Source: Parcubacteria bacterium C7867-004
Lineage (GTDB): Bacteria > Patescibacteriota > Minisyncoccia > Phycocordibacterales > Phycocordibacteraceae
Assembly: GCA_001189075.1 (NCBI GenBank)
Contig: LFCN01000006.1
Location: 460,866-524,865, forward strand
DNA: 64,000 nucleotides
Reading direction: 5' to 3'
Shown one piece after another: positions 1,986-13,231 of the stretch (its first letter is position 1; the number at the start of each line of letters is the position of its first letter). Both the position numbers and the translations under genes were made by a program. The notes under the pieces are model-generated. The model did no database searches, had not been told where the DNA came from, and saw only the letters and a program-made list of their open reading frames with translations.

Positions 1986-3383
1986 ATGTCATCAGGAGGC
2001 GGACACGGCGGGGGACTGCCCGGCTTAAGTATCATCGAAGGATGGCTCGGCGGCGCGCATGCCGAGGGCGGGTTCACCGCGGAAGGAAAATACTTCATGA
2101 TCGCCGGCGCTGCCGAGGTTATCTCGTTCTTCATGGTGGCGCCCGCGCAGTCCGTTACCAACTTCGAGTTCCTCCTCTTCGTCTCGCCGCTCTGGATTCC
2201 GGTCCTTCTCGCCCACTTCGCGTACTTGCGGTACTGGCAGGCAGGCAAGGTTGAATTCATCGCGAAGCAAGCGAAAGTACTGCTCGAGATCAAGCTCCCA
2301 CGCGAAAGCACCAAGACGCCGCTCTCGATGGAGATATTCTTCTCGAACATCGCACTCGCATCCGGAGAAGCGACCTGGTACAAACGTCTCATTCAGGGAC
2401 GTTCACGTCCGACGTGGTCGTTCGAGCTCGTGTCGCTCGGCGGGCGTGTCCACTTGTATGTCTGGTGTCGCGCGGTGTTCAGGCGCGCACTCGAGAGCTT
2501 CATGTACGCGCAGTACCCGGGCGTAGAGATCATCGAAGCAGTCGACTACAGCCGTCTCATCGATCCGACCCATGAGCCGTACCAGATGGCGGCTTTTGAA
2601 TACCTACACACTAATCCAGTTGATGCGTACCCCATAAAGACGTATGTCGAATTCGGACTCGACAAGCCACAGAAGCCAGAGGAACAAACGGATCCCATGG
2701 CGCAGATGCTCGAGACGCTCGGCTCGCTCGGACCCAAGGAGCAGATGTGGATCCAGTTCGTTATTCGTTCGACCAAATATGAGAAATACGAGGGACGCAA
2801 GAACAAAGCCGGAAAGCAGTACACCTGGAAAGACGAAGGGAAAGAAGAGATCGAGAAAATCCGCGAATCATTGGTTACCAAGAGTGAATACGTGGATCCT
2901 GCAACGGGTAAGATGGTCTCGACAAAGGGATTTCCGAACCCTACGGAAGGCGATAAGGATCGTATCAAGGCAATCGAGCAGAATATTGGAAAGACCGCAT
3001 TCGATGTCGGCATCCGCACCATCTACTGCGCACCGAGCGATGCCTATCACAAGAGTATGGGCTCCATAACGAGCAACCTGTTCAAGCCGTTCAACTCGGA
3101 GAAGTACAACGGACTCAAGCCGGGACAGCGATGGAGCGAGCACTTCAATGACTATCCGTGGGAAGACCCGGGAGGCCACCATCTCGCGCACGCGATGCAC
3201 TCGGTCTTGCACTTCTACCGCAGGCGCGCGTTCTTCTATCCGCCGTATATCGGCAAGTGGAACACGATGAGCGTCGAAGAACTCGCGACCCTCATCCACA
3301 TCCCATCGAGTGTGGTTACGACACCGTCTCTGGATCGCATACAGTCTTCGTCTGCTGAGGCGCCTCCGAACCTCCCTACGTAA
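1986..3383 (+). CDS. hypothetical protein, Gly-rich N-terminus with predicted TM segments, 465 aa
   Basis: Long ORF with protein-like composition and hydrophobic N-terminal segments (FMIAGAAEVISFFMVAP, LLFVSPLWIPVLLAHFAYL); no family recognised. Confidence 0.5.
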   Translation: MSSGGGHGGGLPGLSIIEGWLGGAHAEGGFTAEGKYFMIAGAAEVISFFMVAPAQSVTNFEFLLFVSPLWIPVLLAHFAYLRYWQAGKVEFIAKQAKVLLEIKLPRESTKTPLSMEIFFSNIALASGEATWYKRLIQGRSRPTWSFELVSLGGRVHLYVWCRAVFRRALESFMYAQYPGVEIIEAVDYSRLIDPTHEPYQMAAFEYLHTNPVDAYPIKTYVEFGLDKPQKPEEQTDPMAQMLETLGSLGPKEQMWIQFVIRSTKYEKYEGRKNKAGKQYTWKDEGKEEIEKIRESLVTKSEYVDPATGKMVSTKGFPNPTEGDKDRIKAIEQNIGKTAFDVGIRTIYCAPSDAYHKSMGSITSNLFKPFNSEKYNGLKPGQRWSEHFNDYPWEDPGGHHLAHAMHSVLHFYRRRAFFYPPYIGKWNTMSVEELATLIHIPSSVVTTPSLDRIQSSSAEAPPNLPT

Positions 3384-3424
3384 GAGATACAAGAAGCCCT
3401 GCCTAGCGGGGCTTCTTGCTGGTG

Positions 3425-3433
3425 TGATATACC
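3425..3433 (+). promoter_or_regulatory. extended -10-like element (TGaTATACC) 7 nt upstream of mnmA ATG
   Basis: Same architecture as other leaderless promoters in the window. Confidence 0.35.
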
Positions 3434-3439
3434 GAATAC

Positions 3440-4477
3440 ATGGAAAACGTTCGAGGAAAACGTGTGTTTGTGGGACTCTCAGGCGGCGTTGATTCCGCCG
3501 TGTCAGCCGCCCTGCTCAAAGAGGCCGGTGCACGCGTTACCGGGGTATTCATCAAGGGGTGGTACCCACCTGGGATGCCCTGCACCTGGAGCGAGGACCG
3601 GAAAGACGCGATGCGCGTTGCCGCGCGCTTGGGTATACCGTTCGTGACGCTCGACGCATCTGAGGAGTATAAGAAGGGCGTTATCGATTATCTGCTGCGC
3701 GAGTATCGGGCCGGGCGTACCCCTAATCCGGATGTGATGTGCAACCGGGAAGTTAAGTTCGGTGCGTTCGTTCGCTTTGCCAGAGAGCATGGCGCGGATC
3801 TGATTGCGACCGGGCACTATGCACGACTTGAGCAGGGAGCATTGCTGCGCGGCGTACATGAAGAGAAGGATCAAAGCTATTTCTTGTGGGCCGTTCCGAA
3901 GGAGGCGCTCGCCATGACCCTATTTCCGGTGGGGAGCCTATCGAAGGAGAAGACCCGCGCACTGGCGACTCGATTCAACCTGCCAAACGCCGCTAAGCGC
4001 GATAGCCAAGGAATCTGCTTCCTCGGTACGGTCTCGGTCGAGGACTTCCTTCGTTCTGAGTTCTCGCCTGAGCAAGGGAAAGCTTATGATACTGCGGGTA
4101 CTGAGGTAGGTTCGCATTCGGGAAGCACCCTGCATACCATCGGGGAGCGGATCGCGCTAACGAAAGCGGCCCCAGGGCCCTGGTACGTTGTCTCAAAGGA
4201 CCTGGCTGCCAATTCGCTTATCGTATCGAATGAGCACATGCTCCGTACCGAAAGAAAGAACATTGCTCTTGAGGAGAGCAATTGGATTTCCGATATAACG
4301 CAGGGCGAGAATCTTTGCGCGCAGTACCGCTATCACGGTCCTCGGATCACCGGAACGCTCTCGAAGGATCGCTCGGCATTCCTTCCTGACGGGGATCTTC
4401 CGGAGGTGCTCGCGGCTGGCCAGTCGCTCGTGCTGTACCGCGGGGATCAGCTCGTAGGCGGTGCTATTATGAGCTGA
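3440..4477 (+). CDS. mnmA: tRNA-specific 2-thiouridylase MnmA
   Basis: PP-loop SGGVDS near N-terminus, then conserved MnmA segments (GHYAR, DQSYFL). Confidence 0.9.
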   Translation: MENVRGKRVFVGLSGGVDSAVSAALLKEAGARVTGVFIKGWYPPGMPCTWSEDRKDAMRVAARLGIPFVTLDASEEYKKGVIDYLLREYRAGRTPNPDVMCNREVKFGAFVRFAREHGADLIATGHYARLEQGALLRGVHEEKDQSYFLWAVPKEALAMTLFPVGSLSKEKTRALATRFNLPNAAKRDSQGICFLGTVSVEDFLRSEFSPEQGKAYDTAGTEVGSHSGSTLHTIGERIALTKAAPGPWYVVSKDLAANSLIVSNEHMLRTERKNIALEESNWISDITQGENLCAQYRYHGPRITGTLSKDRSAFLPDGDLPEVLAAGQSLVLYRGDQLVGGAIMS

Positions 4478-5307
4478 TGCCAGCTGAAATAGTTAAGACT
4501 GACGGATCAATCGAGATGTTCGATGGATCAAAGCTCATGGACTCATTGATGCGCGCAGGTGCTCGGGAGCCCGTAGCCGAGCGCATCAGGCGTACGATCG
4601 AGGCATCCATAAGCCCGATGGCTGAGAGTAACGAGATCTACAAGCGCGCATTCCAGATGCTGCGCCACGACAGCCGTCCCTCGGCGGCGCGATACAGCCT
4701 CAGGCGTGCACTCTTCGAGTTCGGCCCGTCAGGTCATCCCTTCGAGGACTTCGTCGCTGAGCTCTTCCGTGCGGAGGGATGGACGGTTGCCGATCGTCAG
4801 ACCATCCAAGGGAAGTGCGTCTCGCATGAAGTCGATATCTATGCGACGCGCGGCGGAGAGTGCCTTGCTGGAGAACTTAAGTATCACAACAATCCGGGCT
4901 ACAAGACCGACGTTAAAGTAGCGCTATATGTCAAAGCGCGGCTCGACGATATCTGGGCTGCGGCATCAGATACGAAAAAGGAGGCACGGGTCGACCACGG
5001 ATTCCTCATAACTAACACTAAGTTTACGCGCGACGCGATACAGTTCGCTACCTGCTCGGGCATCAATCTGCTCGGATGGAGCTACCCGCACGAAGGCAAT
5101 CTCTATGACCGCATAGTCGCAGCCGGCCTCTATCCCATAACCGCGCTTACCCTCATCAAAAAGGCCGAGAAACGGCTCCTTATAGACCGCAATATCGTTA
5201 CCTGTGCACAGATCCGACAGAACCGTGATGCGCTCCGGGAGCTCGGCATCCCTCCTGAGCGTATCGGCGCAATTCTCGCTGAGGCGGGCACGCTCTGCGG
5301 AAGCTGA
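4477..5307 (+). CDS. ATP-cone domain fused to Mrr-like (PD-(D/E)XK) restriction-endonuclease catalytic domain
   Basis: N-terminal ATP-cone pattern (IVKTDGSIEMFDGSKLMDSLMRAG); C-terminal D...ExK nuclease core (HEVDIYA...GELKYH) resembling Mrr_cat; start overlaps the mnmA stop by 1 nt. Confidence 0.65.
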   Translation: MPAEIVKTDGSIEMFDGSKLMDSLMRAGAREPVAERIRRTIEASISPMAESNEIYKRAFQMLRHDSRPSAARYSLRRALFEFGPSGHPFEDFVAELFRAEGWTVADRQTIQGKCVSHEVDIYATRGGECLAGELKYHNNPGYKTDVKVALYVKARLDDIWAAASDTKKEARVDHGFLITNTKFTRDAIQFATCSGINLLGWSYPHEGNLYDRIVAAGLYPITALTLIKKAEKRLLIDRNIVTCAQIRQNRDALRELGIPPERIGAILAEAGTLCGS

Positions 5308-5319
5308 TAGACTGAACGC

Positions 5320-6102
5320 ATGAGCGACTTCAAGCGATATAACCCTAACCGGAGTGCGGATTGGAATTACGGCGGAAAGAAATGGCGATTGTCCCGCTCG
5401 AAGATAGAGTTCTTCGTCGAGTGTCCCCGCTGCTTCTATATCGATAACAAACTCGGAACCAAACGCCCCGGGTATCCTGAGTTCACCCTCAACAAGGCGG
5501 TTGATACTCTATTCAAGAAGGAATTTGATGCACACCGAAAAGCGGCAACCGCGCATCCGCTCATGGATAAGTATGAGATTAAAGCAGTTCCGTTCGTGCA
5601 TGCGAAGATGGATACCTGGCGAGAGAACTTCGAGGGAGTCGAGTATACGCACCCTGCAACCGGCTTCGTTATCTCAGGCGCAGTCGACGACATCTGGGTT
5701 GCTGAGAATGGGGAGCTCATCGTCGTCGATTACAAATCCACCTCGAAGCCGGGCAGTATAGAGACGCTTGGAGACTCGAGCTGGAACGAGCAGTACCGCC
5801 GCCAGATGGGTATCTATCAATGGCTCCTCCGTAATAACGGATTCCAGGTCTCCCCGATGGGATACCTGGTCTACGCCAATGCATATGACGACAAGGAAGC
5901 GTTCGATGGGAAGCTCGAGTTCGAGGTTACGGTTGTCGAGTGCGAAGGACAGTCGGAGTGGATCGAGGAGATCCTCCCGCGGATCAAAGAGACACTCGAG
6001 AGCGATGCTATCCCCCCATCAGGCGACGCCTGCGAGTTCTGCCCGTACCGCGAAGCTGCCGGAAAGAAGCTGCTCGCACTCCACAAGGCAGCGAAGAAAT
6101 AG
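5320..6102 (+). CDS. PD-(D/E)XK nuclease, Cas4/RecB-like with putative Fe-S cluster cysteines
   Basis: RecB-family motifs (GAVDDIW, IVVDYKS, QMGIYQWLL = QhxxY); four Cys arranged CPRC (N-term) and CEFC (C-term), as in Cas4/AddB nuclease domains. Confidence 0.6.
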   Translation: MSDFKRYNPNRSADWNYGGKKWRLSRSKIEFFVECPRCFYIDNKLGTKRPGYPEFTLNKAVDTLFKKEFDAHRKAATAHPLMDKYEIKAVPFVHAKMDTWRENFEGVEYTHPATGFVISGAVDDIWVAENGELIVVDYKSTSKPGSIETLGDSSWNEQYRRQMGIYQWLLRNNGFQVSPMGYLVYANAYDDKEAFDGKLEFEVTVVECEGQSEWIEEILPRIKETLESDAIPPSGDACEFCPYREAAGKKLLALHKAAKK

Positions 6103-6107
6103 CTCGT

Positions 6108-6776
6108 ATGCAGGTGCGTATAGAAGAGTCGTGGAAAGAAAAGCTCAAAGGAGAGTTCGAGCAGGAGTATTTCAGACAGCTTACGCGCTTCGTCAAAGAC
6201 GAATACGAGAAGGGGACAGTGTATCCCGCTCCTCAGAACATATTCAGAGCGTTTGAACTCACCCCATTTGAGGAGGTGAAGGTAGTCATTCTCGGCCAGG
6301 ATCCGTATCACGGACCGAGACAGGCGATCGGCTTATCGTTCGCGGTTGATACGGGCATACCGCTGCCTCCTTCGTTACGGAACATATACAAAGAGATCGA
6401 AGACGACCTCGGCACGCCGGTTGAGCATGCCGATGGCGATCTGTCTCGCTGGGCTTCGCAAGGCGTACTGTTACTGAACGCGACGCTAACCGTGCGCGCA
6501 CGATCTGCAGGTTCGCACCAGGGAAAGGGGTGGGAGCAGTTCACCGATGCGGTTATAAAGGCACTCTCTGAGGAGCGAGAGCATCTCGTATTCATACTCT
6601 GGGGCAACTATGCGAAAGCCAAGGGCGCGCATATCGATCGTACGAAGCATCTGGTTATCGAATCCGCGCATCCCTCGCCATTCTCCGCCTCAAGCGGTTT
6701 CTTCGGGAGCAAACCGTTCAGCAAGACGAACGAGTATCTCAATGAGCAGAACAAAAGAGCTGTCGAATGGATATAA
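6108..6776 (+). CDS. ung: uracil-DNA glycosylase, family 1
   Basis: GQDPYH water-activating motif and the HPSP motif (family 1 HPSPLS); full-length similarity to Ung. The track ORF 5940..6776 is an upstream extension; first ATG after the preceding stop chosen. Confidence 0.9.
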   Translation: MQVRIEESWKEKLKGEFEQEYFRQLTRFVKDEYEKGTVYPAPQNIFRAFELTPFEEVKVVILGQDPYHGPRQAIGLSFAVDTGIPLPPSLRNIYKEIEDDLGTPVEHADGDLSRWASQGVLLLNATLTVRARSAGSHQGKGWEQFTDAVIKALSEEREHLVFILWGNYAKAKGAHIDRTKHLVIESAHPSPFSASSGFFGSKPFSKTNEYLNEQNKRAVEWI

Positions 6777-6839
6777 GTCGTGTGAAAGAACTGTGAATAA
6801 CCCACTTGTACACGCGAACGCATGCTACGGTAATCGCAT

Positions 6840-7223
6840 ATGGAAATATTTCTTGCAAAACTCTTGGGCGTGTACTTCGTTATTATCGGCATCATTGTGC
6901 TTGCTCGTCAGAAGGCGGTTATCCCGACTCTCAAGGAACTCTCAAAGAGCCGCGCACTACTTCTCGTCGTCGCAGCGGTTGAGCTCGCGGCCGGTATCGG
7001 ACTCGTGCTGACCTACCCGACGGTATCAGTCAGCCTTGTGGGCGTGTTCTCTGTTATCGGTTACATGATGGTCATCGAGGCGATAATCTACCTCGCTGCT
7101 CCGTCTAAGTTCGTGCAGAAGCTCATCGGATCCTTCAACACGCCATCATGGCACCTTTCAGGAGGCGTCGTCGCGCTTGTCGCAGGCGCATTCCTCGCAG
7201 GTACGGGCTTCGGCTACTTCTAG
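6840..7223 (+). CDS. small integral membrane protein (3-4 TM), hypothetical
   Basis: Hydrophobic 127-aa ORF; flanked by a terminator. Confidence 0.45.
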   Translation: MEIFLAKLLGVYFVIIGIIVLARQKAVIPTLKELSKSRALLLVVAAVELAAGIGLVLTYPTVSVSLVGVFSVIGYMMVIEAIIYLAAPSKFVQKLIGSFNTPSWHLSGGVVALVAGAFLAGTGFGYF

Positions 7224-7237
7224 TATCAAGTATGCAA

Positions 7238-7267
7238 GTAAAAGGCCCCGCTTCCGCGGGGCTTTTT
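7238..7267. terminator. bidirectional Rho-independent terminator (aaaaggccccgc ttcc gcggggcttttt)
   Basis: GC stem-loop with A-run upstream and T-run downstream, between convergent genes. Confidence 0.55.
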
Positions 7268-7268
7268 A

Positions 7269-9242
7269 CTACCAGACCATCTCCCGGTCTTTCGCAAGAC
7301 GGTAGAGCTTGTCCGTTTTCGTAAGACCGTACGCTTCATAGAACGGCTCGAAGTTTGAGAGCGGTCCATTAATACGGAAGAGTCCTGGCGAGTGCGGGTC
7401 CGTGAGTACCTGCATCTTCTCGAATTCGGGACGAGCATTCTCACGCTCGAACAAGGAGAATCCGAGAAAGAAGCGCTGTTCGGGAGTAAGGCCGTCGATA
7501 TCCTTCCGGCCAGTCCGCCCAAGGTGCTGCTGGTACGCATCGAACGCAATGGAGAGCCCGCCCAGATCAGCGATATTCTCGCCAAGCGTGAGCTTGCCGT
7601 TAACGTGTACGCCGTCCGCAACTTCGTACGTATCGAACTGCTTCTCGACTTTCTTTGCTTTAGCTTCGAAGCGTTTGCGATCTTCAGTGCTCCACCAGCT
7701 CTTCAGGTTTCCTTTGGCATCGAACTTCGATCCTTCGTCATCGAATCCGTGGGTTATCTCATGCCCGATAACCGTGCCTATCGCGCCGTAATTCATTGCG
7801 TCATCGTTCGTAAAGCTGAAGAACGGTGGCTGCAGGATAGCAGCAGGGAAGAGCATCTCGTTCATGTTCGGATCGTAGAACGCGTTCACCGTCTGCGGCG
7901 AGCAGTACCATTCCGTGCGGTCGACGGGCTTTAGGAGTTTCCGCATCGCGCGGCGGTGCTCGTATTCGTTCGTGCGGATGATATTCCCCACATAGTCGTC
8001 GGCACGGATAACGAGTCCTGCGAATGAGCGCCATTTATCCGGATATCCGATCTTGCGATTGAACGCGCCAAGCTTCTGAAGGGCTTTTTTCTTCGTTGCG
8101 GGAGTCATCCAGTCGAGCGAGCGGATCCTTGCTTCGTAGGCGGCAAAAAGATCATCAACAAGTTCGTTCATCTTCTTCTTCGCCTCTTTTGTGAAATGCT
8201 TTTTGACATAGAGCTGCCCGATGAGCTCGCCGAGGTTCCCGTTCACCACGCCGAGCACGCGGCGCCAGAGCGGCTTCATAGCGGTCATGCCCGTGAGTAC
8301 CGTGCCGTAGAAGGAGAAGCTCTGCTTGATGAACGGGTCAGAGAGCGCGCCGGCGAAATCGTTCACGACATGAAAGGCGAGGTACGTCTTCCATTCAGCG
8401 AGCGGTACCGACTCAAGCATCAGGCTCGTCTTTATGAGGAAGTCGGGCTGCATGACGATAAGGTACGGAGCCTTATCGCCCTGCGTGAGCTTCAAATACC
8501 GATCCCAGTCCGTGCTTGGTGCGAGCTTCCGGAGAGCGGCTCGTGACATCTTGTGATACGTCTTGTCCGGATCACGCATCTCTTCCTTCTTCATCGAAGC
8601 CTTGGCGAGGACAGTCTCGATTTTCATAACCGCTTCGCGCGCCTCGATCGCTTGCTTCTTGGTATGTCCCATGAGGACAAAGAGCTTTTCGATATGGATC
8701 ACGTAGCCCTCGCGTATGCGCTTCGACTCCGCATCGTCCTTGAGGTAGTAGTCGCGATCAGGAAGTCCGAGGCCATCCTGAAACAGATGGAGTGCGTACC
8801 TCTCGGCATTCTTTGAGTCTTGTCCGACGCCTGAGCCCCAGACGACCCCGACCCCGATGCGGTGCAGGTGGGCAATAACCGATAGGAGATCGTCAGCGTC
8901 TTTCAGTGCTTCGATCTTCCTGAGGAGTTGCGCGAGCGGAGAAAGGCTGAGTTCGTTCCGTCGCTCCATATCCATGCCGGAACGGTAGAAGTCGCGGATG
9001 GTACGGTCGGGGCTCTTTGCGGGAAGCGAGCGCTTCCCGTCGAGCTCATCCAGAAGTGACCGCAGCTTCTTATCAGTCTCATACCTGAGGACCGTGAACG
9101 TGCCCCAACGCGACTCGTTCTTCGGGATTGGGTTCGCGTCCATCCATTTCCGGTTCGCATAGTGATAGAAGTCGTCCTGCGGGCGGATAGACGGTGTAAG
9201 CTCGCGAACGTCGTAGCCCCATGATGCCTTTTTCATAGCCAT
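7269..9242 (-). CDS. pepO: M13 family zinc metallopeptidase (PepO / neprilysin-like)
   Basis: HEITHGFDDEG zinc-binding motif (HExxH), GENIADLGG and NAFY motifs of neprilysin-family peptidases; 657 aa. Confidence 0.85.
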   Translation of the reverse strand: MAMKKASWGYDVRELTPSIRPQDDFYHYANRKWMDANPIPKNESRWGTFTVLRYETDKKLRSLLDELDGKRSLPAKSPDRTIRDFYRSGMDMERRNELSLSPLAQLLRKIEALKDADDLLSVIAHLHRIGVGVVWGSGVGQDSKNAERYALHLFQDGLGLPDRDYYLKDDAESKRIREGYVIHIEKLFVLMGHTKKQAIEAREAVMKIETVLAKASMKKEEMRDPDKTYHKMSRAALRKLAPSTDWDRYLKLTQGDKAPYLIVMQPDFLIKTSLMLESVPLAEWKTYLAFHVVNDFAGALSDPFIKQSFSFYGTVLTGMTAMKPLWRRVLGVVNGNLGELIGQLYVKKHFTKEAKKKMNELVDDLFAAYEARIRSLDWMTPATKKKALQKLGAFNRKIGYPDKWRSFAGLVIRADDYVGNIIRTNEYEHRRAMRKLLKPVDRTEWYCSPQTVNAFYDPNMNEMLFPAAILQPPFFSFTNDDAMNYGAIGTVIGHEITHGFDDEGSKFDAKGNLKSWWSTEDRKRFEAKAKKVEKQFDTYEVADGVHVNGKLTLGENIADLGGLSIAFDAYQQHLGRTGRKDIDGLTPEQRFFLGFSLFERENARPEFEKMQVLTDPHSPGLFRINGPLSNFEPFYEAYGLTKTDKLYRLAKDREMVW

Positions 9243-9278: not shown

Positions 9279-11195
9279 ATGAAGGTATCAGAGGTCAGGA
9301 AACGATTCCTCGCTTTTTATGAGGCGAGAGGGCACGTGATCATACCCTCGGCACCGATAGTGCCGGGCAATGACCCGACCACGCTTTTCACTTCAAGCGG
9401 TATGCAGCCCTTGTTGCCGTATTTCCTCGGAAAGGATCACCCGGAAGGTAAGCGGGTCGTGAATTCCCAGCTATCCTTCCGTGCGGGCGACATAGAAGAG
9501 GTGGGAGACAACCGTCACACGACGTTCTTCGAGATGCTCGGCAACTGGTCCTTCGGCGACTATTTCAAGCAAGAGCAGCTGCCCTGGATATTCGAATTCC
9601 TTACGAGTCCCGATACCGGATTCGGCATCGACCCTTCGAAACTGTATGTAACGGTATTTTCGGGCGACAAGGAAGCAGGTATCGAGCTTGATACCGAAGC
9701 AATAGATATATGGAAGCGACTCTATAAGGAACAGGGCATCGATGCCGGATTCGCGGACATCGGTTCCGAGGAGCATGGCTACGAGCGCGGCATCAAAGAG
9801 GGCGAGCGCATCTTCGCCTACGAAGCAAAGAAGAACTGGTGGAGCAGGTCAGGCGTACCCGCTAACATGCCTGCGGGAGAGCCGGGCGGACCGGACTCCG
9901 AGCTATTCTATGATTTCGGCACGCCGCATGACCCGAAATGGGGAGCACACTGCCATCCGAACTGCGATTGCGGCCGCTTCGTGGAGATCGGAAACTCCGT
10001 CTTCATGCAGTTCATGAAAAAGGACGACGGCTCGTTCGAGGAGCTGCCCAAGAAGAACATTGATTTCGGCGGCGGGCTCGAGCGTATCGCCATGGCAACC
10101 GTAGGACCGGACATATTCCTCCTCGATATCTTCGACACTGCGCGCAGCGTGCTCGAAGAGCGATCCGGCAAGGCGTACGGCACGGACGCAGCCACTACGC
10201 GGTCGATGCGCATCATCCTCGACCATATGCGCGCAGCATCCTGCATGCTTGCTGAAGGCGTTCTTCCCGCAAACACGGAGGCAGGCTACGTGCTTCGTCG
10301 CCTCGTTCGCCGCTCCATACGAGAAGCAGATCGTCTGGGAATACGGGATGCCGTCCTTGCCGACGTCGCTAAGGGATACGGCGAGGCGTACGCGGATCAC
10401 TACCCGCATATACTCGCGAACGCCGATCGTATACGCGATGAGCTCGCTAAGGAGGAGGCGCAGTTCAGGAAAACCCTCACCAACGGGATGCGGGAGCTTG
10501 AGAAGCTCGCAGGACGTGGATCTATTTCTCCGGAAGAGGTGTTCACGCTCTTCACGACCTACGGCTTCCCAATTGAGCTTACGGAGGAAATCGCGAACGA
10601 ACGCGAAATCGAGCTCGATCTGACCGAAGTGATGAAACTCATGGAAAAGCATCAGGAGACATCACGCGCCGGAGGAGCGCAGCGCTTCGCCGGCGGACTT
10701 GCCGATCATGCCGAGCAGACCGTCCGATATCACACCACCCATCACATCCTTCTGAAAGCGCTTCAGATGGTGCTTGGCGACGAAGTGAAGCAGCGCGGGA
10801 GCAATATCACTTCCGAGCGGCTTCGCATCGATTTCTCTTCGCCCGGCAAGATGACCGACGAGCAGAAAGCGGAAGTAGAGAAGATCGTGAACGAGCTTAT
10901 CTATAAGGATATGCCGGTTACGCGCACGGTTATGCTGCGAGAGGAGGCGGAGAAGCTCGGCGCACAGATGGAGTTCGGCGTGAAGTATCCGGACATGGTT
11001 TCGGTCTATTCGGTCGGTCCGGCTCACGCGACGACCGACGCGCCCGATATCCCAAACGCGTTCTCGCTCGAGTTCTGCGGCGGTCCGCATGTGTCGAACA
11101 CAAGCGAAATCCATGACGGCGACAAGAGATTCAAGATACAGAAAGAAGAAGCGGTCGCTTCAGGCATCCGTCGTATAAAAGCAGTATTGGCGTAG
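9279..11195 (+). CDS. alaS: alanyl-tRNA synthetase, short form (catalytic + editing domains, no C-Ala domain)
   Basis: N-terminal AlaRS catalytic core (FTSSGMQP, WSFGDYFK), editing-domain HxxxH (HTTHHILL) and CGGPHV motifs; 638 aa, ending right after the editing domain. Confidence 0.9.
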   Translation: MKVSEVRKRFLAFYEARGHVIIPSAPIVPGNDPTTLFTSSGMQPLLPYFLGKDHPEGKRVVNSQLSFRAGDIEEVGDNRHTTFFEMLGNWSFGDYFKQEQLPWIFEFLTSPDTGFGIDPSKLYVTVFSGDKEAGIELDTEAIDIWKRLYKEQGIDAGFADIGSEEHGYERGIKEGERIFAYEAKKNWWSRSGVPANMPAGEPGGPDSELFYDFGTPHDPKWGAHCHPNCDCGRFVEIGNSVFMQFMKKDDGSFEELPKKNIDFGGGLERIAMATVGPDIFLLDIFDTARSVLEERSGKAYGTDAATTRSMRIILDHMRAASCMLAEGVLPANTEAGYVLRRLVRRSIREADRLGIRDAVLADVAKGYGEAYADHYPHILANADRIRDELAKEEAQFRKTLTNGMRELEKLAGRGSISPEEVFTLFTTYGFPIELTEEIANEREIELDLTEVMKLMEKHQETSRAGGAQRFAGGLADHAEQTVRYHTTHHILLKALQMVLGDEVKQRGSNITSERLRIDFSSPGKMTDEQKAEVEKIVNELIYKDMPVTRTVMLREEAEKLGAQMEFGVKYPDMVSVYSVGPAHATTDAPDIPNAFSLEFCGGPHVSNTSEIHDGDKRFKIQKEEAVASGIRRIKAVLA

Positions 11196-11290: not shown

Positions 11291-13042
11291 TTACCCGAAC
11301 ACGATCCATCCAGCTTGCAAGGAGCTCAGTGCGACACCTTCAAGCACCACGTGTTCGCCCGACCCGAAGGTCAGGACCGTGTCGACCCCCGATTGGGCGG
11401 CCGAATAGGTGATTCCAGCATCCAAGAGGACCTGGTCACCTTGCGAAGCGCTGAAGCCGATGACTCTATCGTCGCTGCCATTGGCAGAGAAATGGAACCT
11501 GTCGGCGCCGTCGCCCCCGGTGAGGGTGTCGTTGCCCTTGTCGCCGGAGAGGTAGTCGTTACCGGCCTCTCCATAGAGGCGGTCGTTATCCTGACCGCCG
11601 TAGATCATGTCGCTGCCGGCCCCGCCATAGACGGTGTCGTTGCCGACGTTGCCGTGCAGCTGGACGTCGTCACCTTCGTCTCCAAAGACAACGTCATCCC
11701 CTTTGCCGCCAAGCACGACGTCAGCGCCAGCATCACCGTGAACGGTGTCGTTGCCGACGTTGCCGTTGATGCTGTCGTTGCCGTTCAGACCGCTAACGTA
11801 GTCATTTCCGTCAGCGCCCCAGAGGACGTTATCGGAAACGTTACCGATGATGCTGTCGTTGCCGGAGCCGCCGACGGCATTCTCGATCACTGTCGTGAGC
11901 GAGATGCCGATGTTGCCCTGGTAGCCGCCGACGGAAGAGAATCCGCCGGACGAAAGGTCCAGGGTTTGCGACATGGCGTACAGCGAGGCATCGAGGGTGT
12001 CGATGCCGCCTGCGTCGTAGATCGTGAACGCGACGCGCGGCCCATAGGTAGCGAAGTCGAAGAACGAGCCTACCGTGCTGTGGAAGCCGTAGGTCGAATT
12101 GCCCGTACGGGTCGTAGTGTTGACCCCGTACAGCATCTGCAACGCGACGATGTCGGCCATCTGAGGCGTGAGGATGCTGTTGTGCAGATCCGCGCCCATC
12201 CAACCGAAATCACTCAGCACCGAGAATTGCAGTCCGTCGTTGGCGAACACGTTGCTCACCCCGTACTGGGGCGAAGCGTTGTACGGGCCGGGATGCCCAA
12301 GACCAAGCGCATGCCCGAGTTCGTGCAGATTGATCTGGAACACCATCGAGTTGAACGACGATCCGGTAACGAAGTCGCTACTGATCGTGATCTTGCCGTT
12401 CCCACCAGTCGCGATCCCCGTCCCCTTGTTGGAGTAGACGATATCTGCGCCCGCGGCATTCGCCACGGACGTGAAGTTGATGTTCGCGACGTCGCTGAAC
12501 ACCTCCTGCGCCTTCTGAGCGTACATTTGCTCGACGGGCGTCAGGTCCGCATAGAAGACCGTGAGGTTCAGTTTCGTGAACGGGTGCAAGATCGACTTCC
12601 AGAAGTCGCCGATCATCATGGCAGCCATTTCAGTTGCCGAGACGTACGGCTTCGCGGCGACCAGGTAAGTGCCGGTCGCAGCCGCGTTCGAAGAACGCGC
12701 TTCGAGGAAGAAGTCGCCCGATGAGCCAGCGGTGTAGTTGATGAACGGGTTGGCGCCGACCGTGTAATCGGCCGCCGCAACCACGTTGCCGAGAGAATCC
12801 CGGAGAGTGATGGCAGGACGGTTCAAGGTCCCGCCAGGAGGGCCGGTATTCGTCTGCACGTCGCCGCCGATAGAGAGGAGGTACCGCTGCCCTTGGGTAA
12901 GGGTAATGCGGAACCAGTCGGTATCGCCGCCGAACTGCACGTTGCCGGTCATCGATCCACCGATGGCAATCCGTCCGGATGTGGTGAAGTCGTTGTCGAA
13001 ATCGTCGCCAGCAATGGCGGCGTTCGTCATTGCAAGGTACAT
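11291..13042 (-). CDS. serralysin-like (M10B) zinc metalloprotease with RTX calcium-binding beta-roll repeats
   Basis: Metzincin motif HELGHALGLGH (HExxHxxGxxH); C-terminal tandem GGxGxDxUx nonapeptide repeats (GNDSINGNVGNDTVHGDAGADVVLGGKGDD...) typical of type-I-secreted RTX proteins; no N-terminal signal peptide. Start set at the internal ATG (MYLAMTNA...), which has an AAGGAG SD 7 nt upstream; the track ORF extends to 13195. Confidence 0.8.
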   Translation of the reverse strand: MYLAMTNAAIAGDDFDNDFTTSGRIAIGGSMTGNVQFGGDTDWFRITLTQGQRYLLSIGGDVQTNTGPPGGTLNRPAITLRDSLGNVVAAADYTVGANPFINYTAGSSGDFFLEARSSNAAATGTYLVAAKPYVSATEMAAMMIGDFWKSILHPFTKLNLTVFYADLTPVEQMYAQKAQEVFSDVANINFTSVANAAGADIVYSNKGTGIATGGNGKITISSDFVTGSSFNSMVFQINLHELGHALGLGHPGPYNASPQYGVSNVFANDGLQFSVLSDFGWMGADLHNSILTPQMADIVALQMLYGVNTTTRTGNSTYGFHSTVGSFFDFATYGPRVAFTIYDAGGIDTLDASLYAMSQTLDLSSGGFSSVGGYQGNIGISLTTVIENAVGGSGNDSIIGNVSDNVLWGADGNDYVSGLNGNDSINGNVGNDTVHGDAGADVVLGGKGDDVVFGDEGDDVQLHGNVGNDTVYGGAGSDMIYGGQDNDRLYGEAGNDYLSGDKGNDTLTGGDGADRFHFSANGSDDRVIGFSASQGDQVLLDAGITYSAAQSGVDTVLTFGSGEHVVLEGVALSSLQAGWIVFG

Positions 13043-13231
13043 ATTCGATCTCCTTTGACCGTATTGGGTCGCTAGACCCGCAAGTATCGAATGTGGGCTC
13101 TTTTTACCACGTATTAAACGTATTGTCGAGAATGTTATCCCCATATGCAGAGAGATGCTGCAAGACCACCCGACCCGCGATCCGCAGCTGAACATGCGCA
13201 GGATTCAGGCACCGATTGAACTGGAACGCCC

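Follow-up and report, generated by a model that had tools for sequence, protein, structure and literature searches.

ATP-cone domains are the classical allosteric switch of deoxynucleotide supply. Those characterised so far have two outputs, the activity of ribonucleotide reductase and repression by NrdR; cleavage of nucleic acid, if true, would be a third. On the nuclease side, the closest described protein is AF1548 of Archaeoglobus fulgidus (Protein Data Bank, PDB, entry 1Y88), a structural-genomics protein that is itself without known function. The only relevant item found in the literature is the 2007 Global Ocean Sampling prediction that AF1548 is a restriction-type nuclease (PMC1821046). 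Here we analyse a locus of the Parcubacteria bacterium C7867-004 in which one gene, gene 1, is predicted to carry an ATP-cone in front of an AF1548-type nuclease. The genome is a 779-kb reconstruction with 56% GC from the Hanford aquifer (PMC4508563). The window is the whole stretch that was analysed, 64,000 nt of contig LFCN01000006.1 (460,866-524,865, forward strand), and coordinates are counted from its first letter. Gene 1 is followed by a RecB-type nuclease gene (gene 2) and a uracil-DNA glycosylase (UDG) gene (gene 3). We consider it rather probable that this locus serves DNA maintenance as a co-transcribed part of a housekeeping operon, that it is inherited vertically and is neither mobile nor defensive, and that gene 1 acts by a nucleotide-gated mechanism. 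The ATP-cone nuclease family to which gene 1 belongs is catalogued and widespread, and its pairing of a known sensor with a known effector is without characterised precedent. The features of the three genes are listed below.

4477-5307, + strand: gene 1 (AB199_02845), 276 residues; ATP-cone, AF1548-type PD-(D/E)XK nuclease and helix-hairpin-helix (HhH) domain
4477-4716, + strand: ATP-cone domain of gene 1, residues 1-80
4729-5091, + strand: PD-(D/E)XK (Mrr_cat) core of gene 1, residues 85-205
5119-5301, + strand: AF1548-like C-terminal HhH domain of gene 1, residues 215-275
5320-6102, + strand: gene 2, 260 residues; stand-alone RecB/AddB/Cas4-type nuclease
5422, 5431, 6031 and 6040, + strand: codons of the invariant cysteines C35, C38, C238 and C241 of gene 2
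6108-6776, + strand: gene 3, 222 residues; family-1 UDG (Ung)

Domains, active site and nucleotide pocket of gene 1

The gene 1 protein, which is 100% identical to AB199_02845, matches Mrr_cat of Pfam with 31.2 bits, above the gathering score of 21. Two further domains score below threshold in this protein, the ATP-cone (PF03477; 22.6 bits, just under the gathering score of 25.8) and AF1548-like_C (PF22357; 20.3 bits, gathering score 23.9). In the relatives P0183 and P0180 the ATP-cone is matched above the gathering score (39.9 and 27.8 bits, respectively), and many further relatives carry precomputed PF03477 matches. Residues 92-275 match the AF1548 structure with E=6.2e-26. An AlphaFold model was built on a diverse alignment of 74 sequences, including relatives at 36-44% identity, and has a pLDDT of 93.6 and a pTM of 0.89. 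In the Foldseek search of this model against the PDB, 1Y88 is at the top (E=5.7e-14, TM score 0.79, 32% identity). The next matches to the nuclease domain are MspJI, AspBHI, the R2 retrotransposon endonuclease and the CARF-nucleases Can2 and Cdn1. Residues 1-81 of the model superpose on NrdR ATP-cones at 2.5-2.7 Å with a probability of 1.0. A long series of ATP-cones from NrdR (including those of E. coli and S. coelicolor) and ribonucleotide reductase is matched by the same N-terminus with root-mean-square deviations of 2.4-3.3 Å, in agreement with the ATP-cone fold, in which a beta-hairpin lid covers a cone of four helices. Together with the 1Y88 sequence match, these structure matches of the predicted model indicate that both of the sub-threshold domain calls are real. 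The initial annotation, which had been made from the sequence alone, described gene 1 as a fusion of an ATP-cone with an Mrr-type PD-(D/E)XK nuclease and proposed profile searches for the domains. The fusion is borne out by the Mrr_cat score, the 1Y88 match and the NrdR superposition; the profiles place Mrr_cat in gene 1 and PDDEXK_1 in gene 2 above threshold, and structure supplies the confirmation of the ATP-cone.

To evaluate conservation, the window protein was aligned with 138 proteins that represent clusters formed at 50% identity, reaching down to ~33% identity. In these 139 sequences, E90, E118, D120, E133, K135, R155 and D158 are invariant, and N180 is present in 138/139. The predicted catalytic set of the nuclease is E90, D120, E133 and K135. 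The last three residues are the equivalents of D38, E51 and K53 of AF1548, which were predicted to be catalytic (PMC1821046). Four cysteines of gene 1 are also conserved, C114, C193, C243 and C274 (window 4816-4818, 5053-5055, 5203-5205 and 5296-5298). In the 74-sequence alignment, C114 and C193 do not vary and the conservation of C243 and C274 reaches 90% or more; the archaeal AF1548 also has C114, C193 and C243.

In the ATP-cone, conservation among the 139 sequences is 90% or higher for K7, G10, F15, K19 and S23. According to BLASTP, residues 5-34 align without gaps to residues 51-80 of E. coli NrdR. I5, K7, T8, E13 and F15 of gene 1 thereby correspond to V51, K53, S54, E59 and F61 of NrdR, and K19, L20 and R26 to K65, L66 and R72. 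By manual alignment, S51 and I54 correspond to S105 and I108. All of these are inner-site residues of NrdR, and those from K53 to R72 are described as holding the adenine and the phosphates of the bound nucleotide (bioRxiv 10.1101/2025.03.28.645925). Thus gene 1 likely binds an adenine nucleotide, as judged from these sequence correspondences. Y131 of NrdR, the outer-site tyrosine that discriminates dATP, falls on F80 of gene 1 in the manual alignment, and this position is variable in the family. The (d)ATP sensing of which the initial annotation spoke is thus supported by half: the conserved inner site agrees with an adenine nucleotide, and the position that would discriminate dATP is variable.

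The gene 1 family comprises 1071 clusters at 50% identity with E<=1e-3, 395 of them with E<=1e-30. Among the best 150 clusters, 138 are 260-300 residues long, and most match over nearly the whole length. The family covers at least five phyla. Its named members come from Parcubacteria/Paceibacterota, Bacteroidota (Flavobacterium, Saprospiraceae, Cyclobacteriaceae, Flagellimonas, Fulvivirga and Pontibacter), Rhodohalobacter, Planctomycetota and Chlamydiota (Criblamydia). In the databases they are labelled 'ATP cone domain-containing protein' or 'restriction endonuclease'. When the longer members were screened for informative fusions, only sub-threshold tails resembling histone H1 were found. The Planctomycetota relatives P0261, P0284 and P0285 reach 462-522 residues by such a lysine/alanine-rich N-terminal extension. 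The extension is HC2, below the Pfam threshold, and hints at bulk DNA association.

Genes 2 and 3 and the predicted transcription unit

Canonical Cas4 nucleases carry their cysteines in the pattern C...CxxCx5C (1+3). Gene 2 matches PDDEXK_1 (PF12705) with 64.5 bits (gathering score 22) over model positions 1-244 of 247. Its score is 26.9 bits against Cas_Cas4 of Pfam and 41.4 bits against the Cas4 equivalog TIGR00372, below the cut-off of 65. Phage 'exonuclease' and Cas4-like PHROGs are matched too, and so are Cas4 models in PADLOC. The RecB motifs (D123-D124, D137-x-K139 and Q162-x3-Y166) are invariant in 23 relatives. C35, C38, C238 and C241 are likewise invariant in these relatives, down to 47% identity, and C208 is not conserved. 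The layout is accordingly 2+2, C35-x2-C38 with C238-x2-C241. A sequence search of the PDB with gene 2 gave no match, and the profile comparison with the Cas4 protein Pcal_0546 (4R5Q) was marginal (E=0.09). In this weak alignment, C35 falls on the 'CPR' cysteine, and C238 and C241 fall on the C-terminal CxxC. C38 likely substitutes for the missing third C-terminal cysteine, which would make gene 2 a 2+2 variant of the Cas4/AddB cluster. The initial annotation had recognised a Cas4/RecB-family nuclease with four cysteines as CxxC plus CxxC, and this agrees with the PDDEXK_1 score and with the invariance in relatives. It had also put these cysteines in the positions of the Cas4 Fe-S cluster. According to the weak alignment, that is the case for three of the four, and the layout is 2+2, not 1+3.

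The scan of 30 window proteins revealed no cas family, and the related loci described below show none either. Likewise, restriction-modification and methyltransferase matches are absent from these 30 proteins, gene 1 and gene 2 themselves excepted, and no CRISPR-like array was found in the 64-kb window. This is what the initial annotation had said of both CRISPR-Cas and restriction-modification genes. Gene 2 is not a CRISPR Cas4, because its score is below the equivalog cut-off, cas genes and an array are missing, and its cysteines do not follow C...CxxCx5C. In the 80 close loci described below, the gene 2 homologues fall into two groups of identity to the window protein, ~68-92% and ~47-52%, and gene 1 identity in the same loci is unimodal (56-88%). 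Two gene 2 subtypes seem to circulate at one otherwise syntenic position.

Gene 3 matches the Ung equivalogs NF003592 (327 bits, cut-off 162) and TIGR00628 (275.6 bits, cut-off 185.75). The motifs GQDPYH (residues 63-68) and HPSP (188-191, within the HPSP(L/F)S motif at 188-193) are present. By these scores and motifs, gene 3 is an unremarkable family-1 Ung, as originally annotated. A longer open reading frame with a GTG start at 5940 overlaps gene 2; the ATG at 6108 fits the Ung models from residue 2.

The three genes lie in a string of six genes between two strong hairpins. The remaining features of this string are as follows.

1932-1962, + strand: terminator-like hairpin of 13 pairs, 10 of them G-C; closes the upstream sigma-factor-like gene and is the 5' limit of the predicted unit
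1986-3383, + strand: uncharacterised conserved protein of 465 residues (AB199_02835); heads the unit, DUF8128-like by position in related loci
3440-4477, + strand: mnmA, tRNA 2-thiouridine synthase (NF001138, 344.8 bits, cut-off 284)
6840-7223, + strand: predicted membrane protein of 127 residues; closes the unit, weak DUF2065 and DoxX_2 matches only
7245-7262, either strand: GC-rich hairpin with T-runs on both strands; shared terminator of the unit and the convergent M13 peptidase gene

One nucleotide belongs both to the stop codon of mnmA and to the start codon of gene 1 (TGATG, 4475-4479), and the spacers are 12 nt between genes 1 and 2 and 5 nt between genes 2 and 3. The co-oriented, tightly spaced arrangement after mnmA, including the overlapping start, is therefore as the initial annotation had it. 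On the + strand between the hairpins at 1932-1962 and 7245-7262, only one weak hairpin of five pairs was found, at 2114. With strong hairpins on both flanks and a single weak one inside, the six genes at 1986-7223 are predicted from the sequence to be, most simply, one transcription unit. The GC content is even across the region (0.52-0.60).

The gene that heads the unit, AB199_02835, has a homologue in 70/80 related loci, and DUF8128 (PF26449) is found in the genes that take its position elsewhere. Searches of Pfam, NCBIfam and PHROGs with the window copy gave no match. The core list of Parcubacteria includes the protein as an 'uncharacterized conserved protein' present in 17/17 genomes (PMC4508563). 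The 127-residue membrane protein at the other end has no detectable homologue among the 80 related loci. Elsewhere the window has a housekeeping character, with several aminoacyl-tRNA synthetases, DnaK/DnaJ, RpoA, peptidases and cell-wall enzymes. Upstream of the unit, 844-1917 encodes a 357-residue protein with Sigma-70 region 4 and a HARE-HTH domain; this sigma-like gene occupies the same position, after the leucyl-tRNA synthetase (LeuRS) gene, in the distant Parcubacteria loci L086, L171 and L172. On the - strand, 11291-13195 encodes a 634-residue protein with calcium-binding repeats of the RTX type and a C-terminal domain of serralysin. This combination points to a protein that is secreted or of the adhesion type, and it is notable for a presumed symbiotic genome of ~0.78 Mb.

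Gene neighbourhoods in close and distant relatives

For the close relatives, one genome per species was scanned, giving 80 loci (L001-L080), all of the Paceibacteria type, with gene 1 at 56-88% identity. In these loci mnmA is present in 79, gene 2 in 74 and a family-1 UDG in 73. Where enough downstream sequence exists (72 loci), gene 2 is found in 68, UDG in 70 and both in 67. Co-localisation beyond this genome, which the initial annotation had set as a check on its proposal, is thus the rule among close relatives. With adjacency defined as a distance of at most 150 nt, genes 1 and 2 are adjacent in 60/74 loci, and gene 2 and UDG in 27/70. The whole block is syntenic, in the order LeuRS, sigma-like gene, DUF8128, (YceG), mnmA, gene 1 ... 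alanyl-tRNA synthetase (AlaRS). More than half of the Parcubacteria core genes keep a conserved neighbour (PMC4508563). The median identities over the 80 related genomes are 69% for gene 1, 70% for gene 2 and 72% for UDG. Those of mnmA, AlaRS and the M13 peptidase are 63, 75 and 63%, respectively. Since the three medians lie within the range of mnmA and AlaRS, genes 1 to 3 evolve like housekeeping genes.

When all loci were re-screened, the general string was mnmA, gene 1, [DUF7282], [MgtC], gene 2, [ogt-like], UDG, [M13 or M3 peptidase] and AlaRS, brackets marking the genes that are not always there. The distant Paceibacterota relative L171, with gene 1 and gene 2 at 44 and 57% identity to the window proteins, has the order mnmA, gene 1, DUF7282, gene 2, ogt-like gene and family-4 UDG. 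Its ogt-like protein (8389-8658) has 89 residues and consists of the C-terminal alkyltransferase domain only, with a PCHR motif and 75.5 bits to TIGR00589. Such a gene stands between gene 2 (or gene 1) and UDG in 35/80 close loci, for example in L065 at 9663-9911. It is absent from the window, and it was either lost in C7867-004 or never there. The family-4 UDG (TIGR00758, 203 bits) takes the family-1 slot in L171 (8655-9248) and in L034 (11078-11653). L034 is a close relative and L171 a distant one. The exchange is a non-orthologous replacement within one neighbourhood. Because two unrelated UDG families share one slot beside an alkyltransferase and a RecB-type nuclease, we argue that gene 2, the optional ogt-like gene and UDG make up a real base-damage repair cluster in Paceibacteria and not an accident, as far as gene order can tell. 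The gaps between these genes hold no further repair genes, only GH26, SIMPL, an M16 peptidase and an HD_4 hydrolase. Within the candidate phyla radiation (CPR), a second clade has gene 2 (with or without the ogt-like gene) followed by a conserved phosphohydrolase of the HD_4 type with ~195 residues, not by UDG (L121 3470-4057, L145 8675-9248 and L146 3246-3842). This is another nucleotide-related neighbour.

A second set comprised 80 metagenome loci of more distant gene 1 relatives (~39% identity), which were screened for UDG of families 1 and 4; neither family was found in any of the 80 loci. Gene 2 occurs there only in five CPR-like loci, in which mnmA is also present where upstream sequence exists. 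The commonest neighbour is a beta-CASP nuclease of the metallo-beta-lactamase (MBL) fold with ~457 residues, on the same strand and ~18 nt after gene 1, in 36/60 evaluable loci. In Pontibacter and Criblamydia, the ATP-cone protein forms a cassette with the MBL-fold hydrolase, a protein of the thymidine-phosphorylase family and a ribose-phosphate pyrophosphokinase.

L169, 1972-6597: cassette on the Pontibacter plasmid NZ_CP021236
L170, 5998-10605: cassette on the Criblamydia plasmid NZ_LK031773

The cassette is also present in L081-L085 and in many of L089-L168. Archaeal-type by its matches (NF003338 and ARCH_P_rylase), the phosphorylase of the cassette stays just below the cut-off for AMP phosphorylase. 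The cassette kinase, similar to phosphoribosyl pyrophosphate (PRPP) synthase, is NF005537. Outside the close clade, further recurring neighbours are a cation P-type ATPase, MgtC, PPK2 and AAA_28, the ATPase gene overlapping the start of gene 1 with its end. Tandem Usp, Hsp20, a Crp-type regulator and fermentation enzymes recur as well, some of these identifications being a reading of the sequences. Outside CPR, the cassette region looks like an energy-stress or nucleic-acid-catabolism island. The beta-CASP protein, the phosphorylase, PRPP synthase, MgtC, Usp and others of these neighbours were found neither in the window nor in the 80 close loci. MgtC stands directly after a gene of the gene 1 family in L086 (7886-8368), L172 (6858-7385), L173 (4524-5006), L149 and L083 (7880-9166), and the pairing is seen in Saprospiraceae as well; MgtC is an ATP/Mg-homeostasis factor.

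Across phyla, the gene orders show that the constant companion of gene 1 is a second predicted nuclease directly downstream, Cas4-like in Parcubacteria and beta-CASP elsewhere. They also show that genes annotated for adenylate, Mg and nucleotide salvage (MgtC, PPK2, P-type ATPase, archaeal-type phosphorylase and PRPP synthase) recur with gene 1.

Proposed mechanism, rival explanations and comparison with known systems

By analogy with NrdR and ribonucleotide reductase, an adenine nucleotide (ATP, ADP or AMP, dATP not being clearly discriminated) bound to the ATP-cone of gene 1 would change the oligomer state or the domain packing of the protein. This change would switch a sequence-nonspecific nuclease on or off. 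Gene 2 is presumed to be a metal-cluster exonuclease that processes DNA ends in the 5'-3' direction. Gene 1 would make an endonucleolytic cut that is gated by the nucleotide state, and the downstream exonuclease would extend it. In this way the breakdown or repair of DNA (or of another nucleic acid) could be coupled to the nucleotide and energy status of the cell. Gene 2, the ogt-like protein and UDG would act in base-damage repair; UDG would be situated near gene 2 and probably work alongside it, and gene 1 would not depend on UDG as a partner. That genes 1 and 2 really cooperate is a tentative proposition, for which we see somewhat less than an even chance. Of the dedicated DNA-processing pathway that the initial annotation had suggested for the three genes, the repair cluster of gene 2, the optional ogt-like gene and UDG stands, with gene 1 upstream of it throughout this lineage, and an obligatory three-gene module does not, in view of the block synteny and of clades that lack gene 2 or UDG.

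Parcubacteria are described as having no nucleotide biosynthesis and no obvious salvage systems, and the type IV pilus, ComEC, ComF and DprA are among their core genes (PMC4508563). The proposed coupling fits such organisms, which do not synthesise nucleotides and have a core DNA-uptake apparatus. In the same comparison, UDG occurs only in genomes from the oxic (Hanford) site, and the apurinic/apyrimidinic (AP) endonuclease gene nfo only in OD1-i, another subgroup (PMC4508563). This host context keeps alive both a nucleotide-state-coupled breakdown or repair of DNA and a nuclease role at abasic sites. The proposal may be carried further, to a new class of metabolite-gated housekeeping nucleases in which adenylate or dATP licenses the cut, a downstream exonuclease extends it and the products feed repair or the salvage of nucleotides and pentose; in CPR bacteria, this would be a control point for turning their own or imported DNA into building blocks. 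We regard this extension as speculative and, as a whole, unlikely.

Several results weigh against the proposed reading of the locus. The ATP-cone of the window protein falls just under its gathering score, and our literature search turned up neither functional studies nor biochemical data on the gene 1 family or AF1548. The pair of mnmA and gene 1 is as well conserved (adjacent within 150 nt in 58/79 loci) as the pair of genes 1 and 2, and the adjacency of the latter is inseparable from the general synteny of the block. Genes 1, 2 and 3 are all outside the 13-of-17 core list of Parcubacteria, in which the first two genes of the unit are included (PMC4508563). Partners are also lost. UDG, with or without the ogt-like gene, follows gene 1 without gene 2 in L035, L038 and L039, and a Parcubacteria clade (around GW2011_GWA1_44_13, with L172 and L173) has the order mnmA, gene 1, MgtC and AlaRS, lacking gene 2, the ogt-like gene and UDG. 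Finally, the beta-CASP protein of the cassette has an RNA-metabolising MBL domain and resembles aCPSF1 (also Cas14), and the substrate of the gene 1 family could be RNA. We consider DNA more likely, because of the HhH domain, the DNA endonucleases as nearest folds, the sub-threshold H1-like tails and the DNA-repair neighbours in CPR.

The RNA question leads to an explanation in which gene 1 is an energy-state-gated enzyme of nucleic-acid catabolism or salvage, possibly an RNase, and its place beside gene 2 and UDG is inherited order with no functional meaning. The cassette of Bacteroidota and Chlamydiota, in which gene 1 accompanies the RNA-metabolising beta-CASP protein, the archaeal-type phosphorylase and the PRPP-synthase-like kinase, speaks for it, and the same loci carry Usp, Hsp20, PPK2, MgtC, the P-type ATPase and fermentation genes (several by sequence reading). 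Conserved neighbourhoods are general in Parcubacteria (PMC4508563), and the equal conservation of the mnmA pair suits inherited order. However, the structures nearest to the nuclease domain are the DNA endonucleases MspJI, AspBHI and R2, gene 1 carries the HhH domain, no cassette partner occurs in the window or the 80 related loci, and the gene after gene 1 in Parcubacteria is again a nuclease, which is hard to call coincidence. This explanation is unlikely in our judgement. HhH domains are common in base-excision enzymes, and the one in gene 1 would equally suit a single pathway of all three enzymes. Here UDG would remove uracil, gene 1 and/or gene 2 would cut and resect the abasic site in place of the AP endonuclease that the clade appears to lack, and the ATP-cone would tie excision to the nucleotide supply. 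The tight operon, the joint presence of gene 2 and UDG in 67/72 evaluable loci, the exchange of UDG families at one position, and the distribution of UDG and nfo given above are all in line with it. Yet genes 1 and 2 persist without a nearby UDG in L121, L145, L146 and L149, one Parcubacteria clade has gene 1 alone beside MgtC, and both UDG families are missing from all 80 distant loci. Unrelated genes (GH26, SIMPL and M16 peptidase) often separate gene 2 from UDG, and to our knowledge neither nuclease family is known for AP-endonuclease activity. Thus a single pathway is quite unlikely.

Nucleotide depletion is a known signal of infection, and the initial annotation had raised an anti-foreign-DNA function. 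Gene 1 would then be an Mrr-type (type IV-like) nuclease triggered by ATP or dNTP pools that change on infection, and gene 2 and UDG would attack invading, for example uracil-containing, DNA. In its fold, gene 1 does resemble Mrr_cat and the catalytic domains of MspJI and AspBHI, as well as Can2 and Cdn1, which are defence nucleases gated by a ligand, and gene 2 matches the Cas4 models of PADLOC. The conservation is that of a housekeeping gene, however. No relatives of gene 1 were found in 50,697 GenBank phage records or in IMG/VR, 2/72,556 plasmids carry one, and BFVD, a viral structure library, gave only partial fold matches. No PADLOC system matches gene 1, the sole match being the ZorD nuclease domain with E=0.025, and Mrr_N or another modified-DNA reader, a methyltransferase, cas genes and an array are all missing. 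Throughout the clade, gene 1 keeps ~70% identity and a constant place between mnmA and AlaRS, which is unlike patchy, fast-evolving defence genes, and the GC content is uniform. A defence function is therefore very improbable, and that suggestion of the initial annotation is not upheld. The last explanation takes gene 1 as an NrdR-like nucleotide-sensing regulator that uses the nuclease fold for DNA binding only. The ATP-cone is indeed closest to that of NrdR, and a sensor with a DNA-binding module parallels the NrdR architecture. Invariance of E90, D120, E133 and K135, with E118, R155 and D158, in all 139 sequences would be unexpected after loss of catalysis, and the genes regularly found beside gene 1 encode nucleases instead of ribonucleotide reductase. 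We give such a regulator hardly any credence.

The nucleotide-gated DNA-maintenance reading thus remains our preferred one, with a restricted meaning for the locus. Most of the 'module' reflects inherited gene order; gene 2, the ogt-like gene and UDG follow a repair logic that is real but ordinary, and no hidden defence system is present. Only gene 1, with its family of ATP-cone nucleases, is really intriguing here. This family offers a way to ask how nucleotide-auxotrophic CPR bacteria tie the degradation and repair of DNA to nucleotide and energy status.

Gene 3 is like the family-1 Ung enzymes in being a full-length equivalog with both catalytic motifs. Gene 2 shares with the Fe-S nucleases Cas4, AddB and Exo5 the RecB motifs (D, DxK and QxxxY), the N-terminal 'CPR' cysteine and the C-terminal CxxC. 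It differs from them in standing alone, with no helicase partner or cas genes nearby, and in its 2+2 cysteines. Gene 1 has the catalytic fold and the D...(D/E)xK motif of the type IV enzymes Mrr, MspJI and AspBHI. Unlike them, it has no N-terminus that reads modified DNA, lies outside a mobile or defence context, is absent from phages and keeps a fixed length of 260-300 residues.

With AF1548, gene 1 has in common the nuclease core with a C-terminal HhH domain, the counterparts of the residues D38/E51/K53 and three cysteines, whereas AF1548 has no ATP-cone and only ~22 residues before the nuclease. Compared with the ATP-cones of NrdR and ribonucleotide reductase, the N-terminal fold is the same and the inner-site residues correspond one for one, and the logic of nucleotide-dependent oligomerisation or allostery is likely shared. 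The output is different, being a nuclease that is catalytically intact by sequence instead of a zinc ribbon or a reductase. Moreover, the gatekeeper Y131 of E. coli NrdR appears to fall on the variable F80 (manual alignment), and no ribonucleotide reductase genes are nearby. The type III CRISPR nucleases Can2, Card1 and Cdn1 have a CARF sensor for cyclic oligoadenylate where gene 1 has an ATP-cone and, presumably, an adenine nucleotide, and gene 1 shows housekeeping-level conservation outside any CRISPR or defence context. They resemble gene 1, with a weak structural match, in linking a small-nucleotide sensor to a PD-(D/E)XK nuclease, and by this analogy gene 1 is plausibly a ligand-gated nuclease as well.

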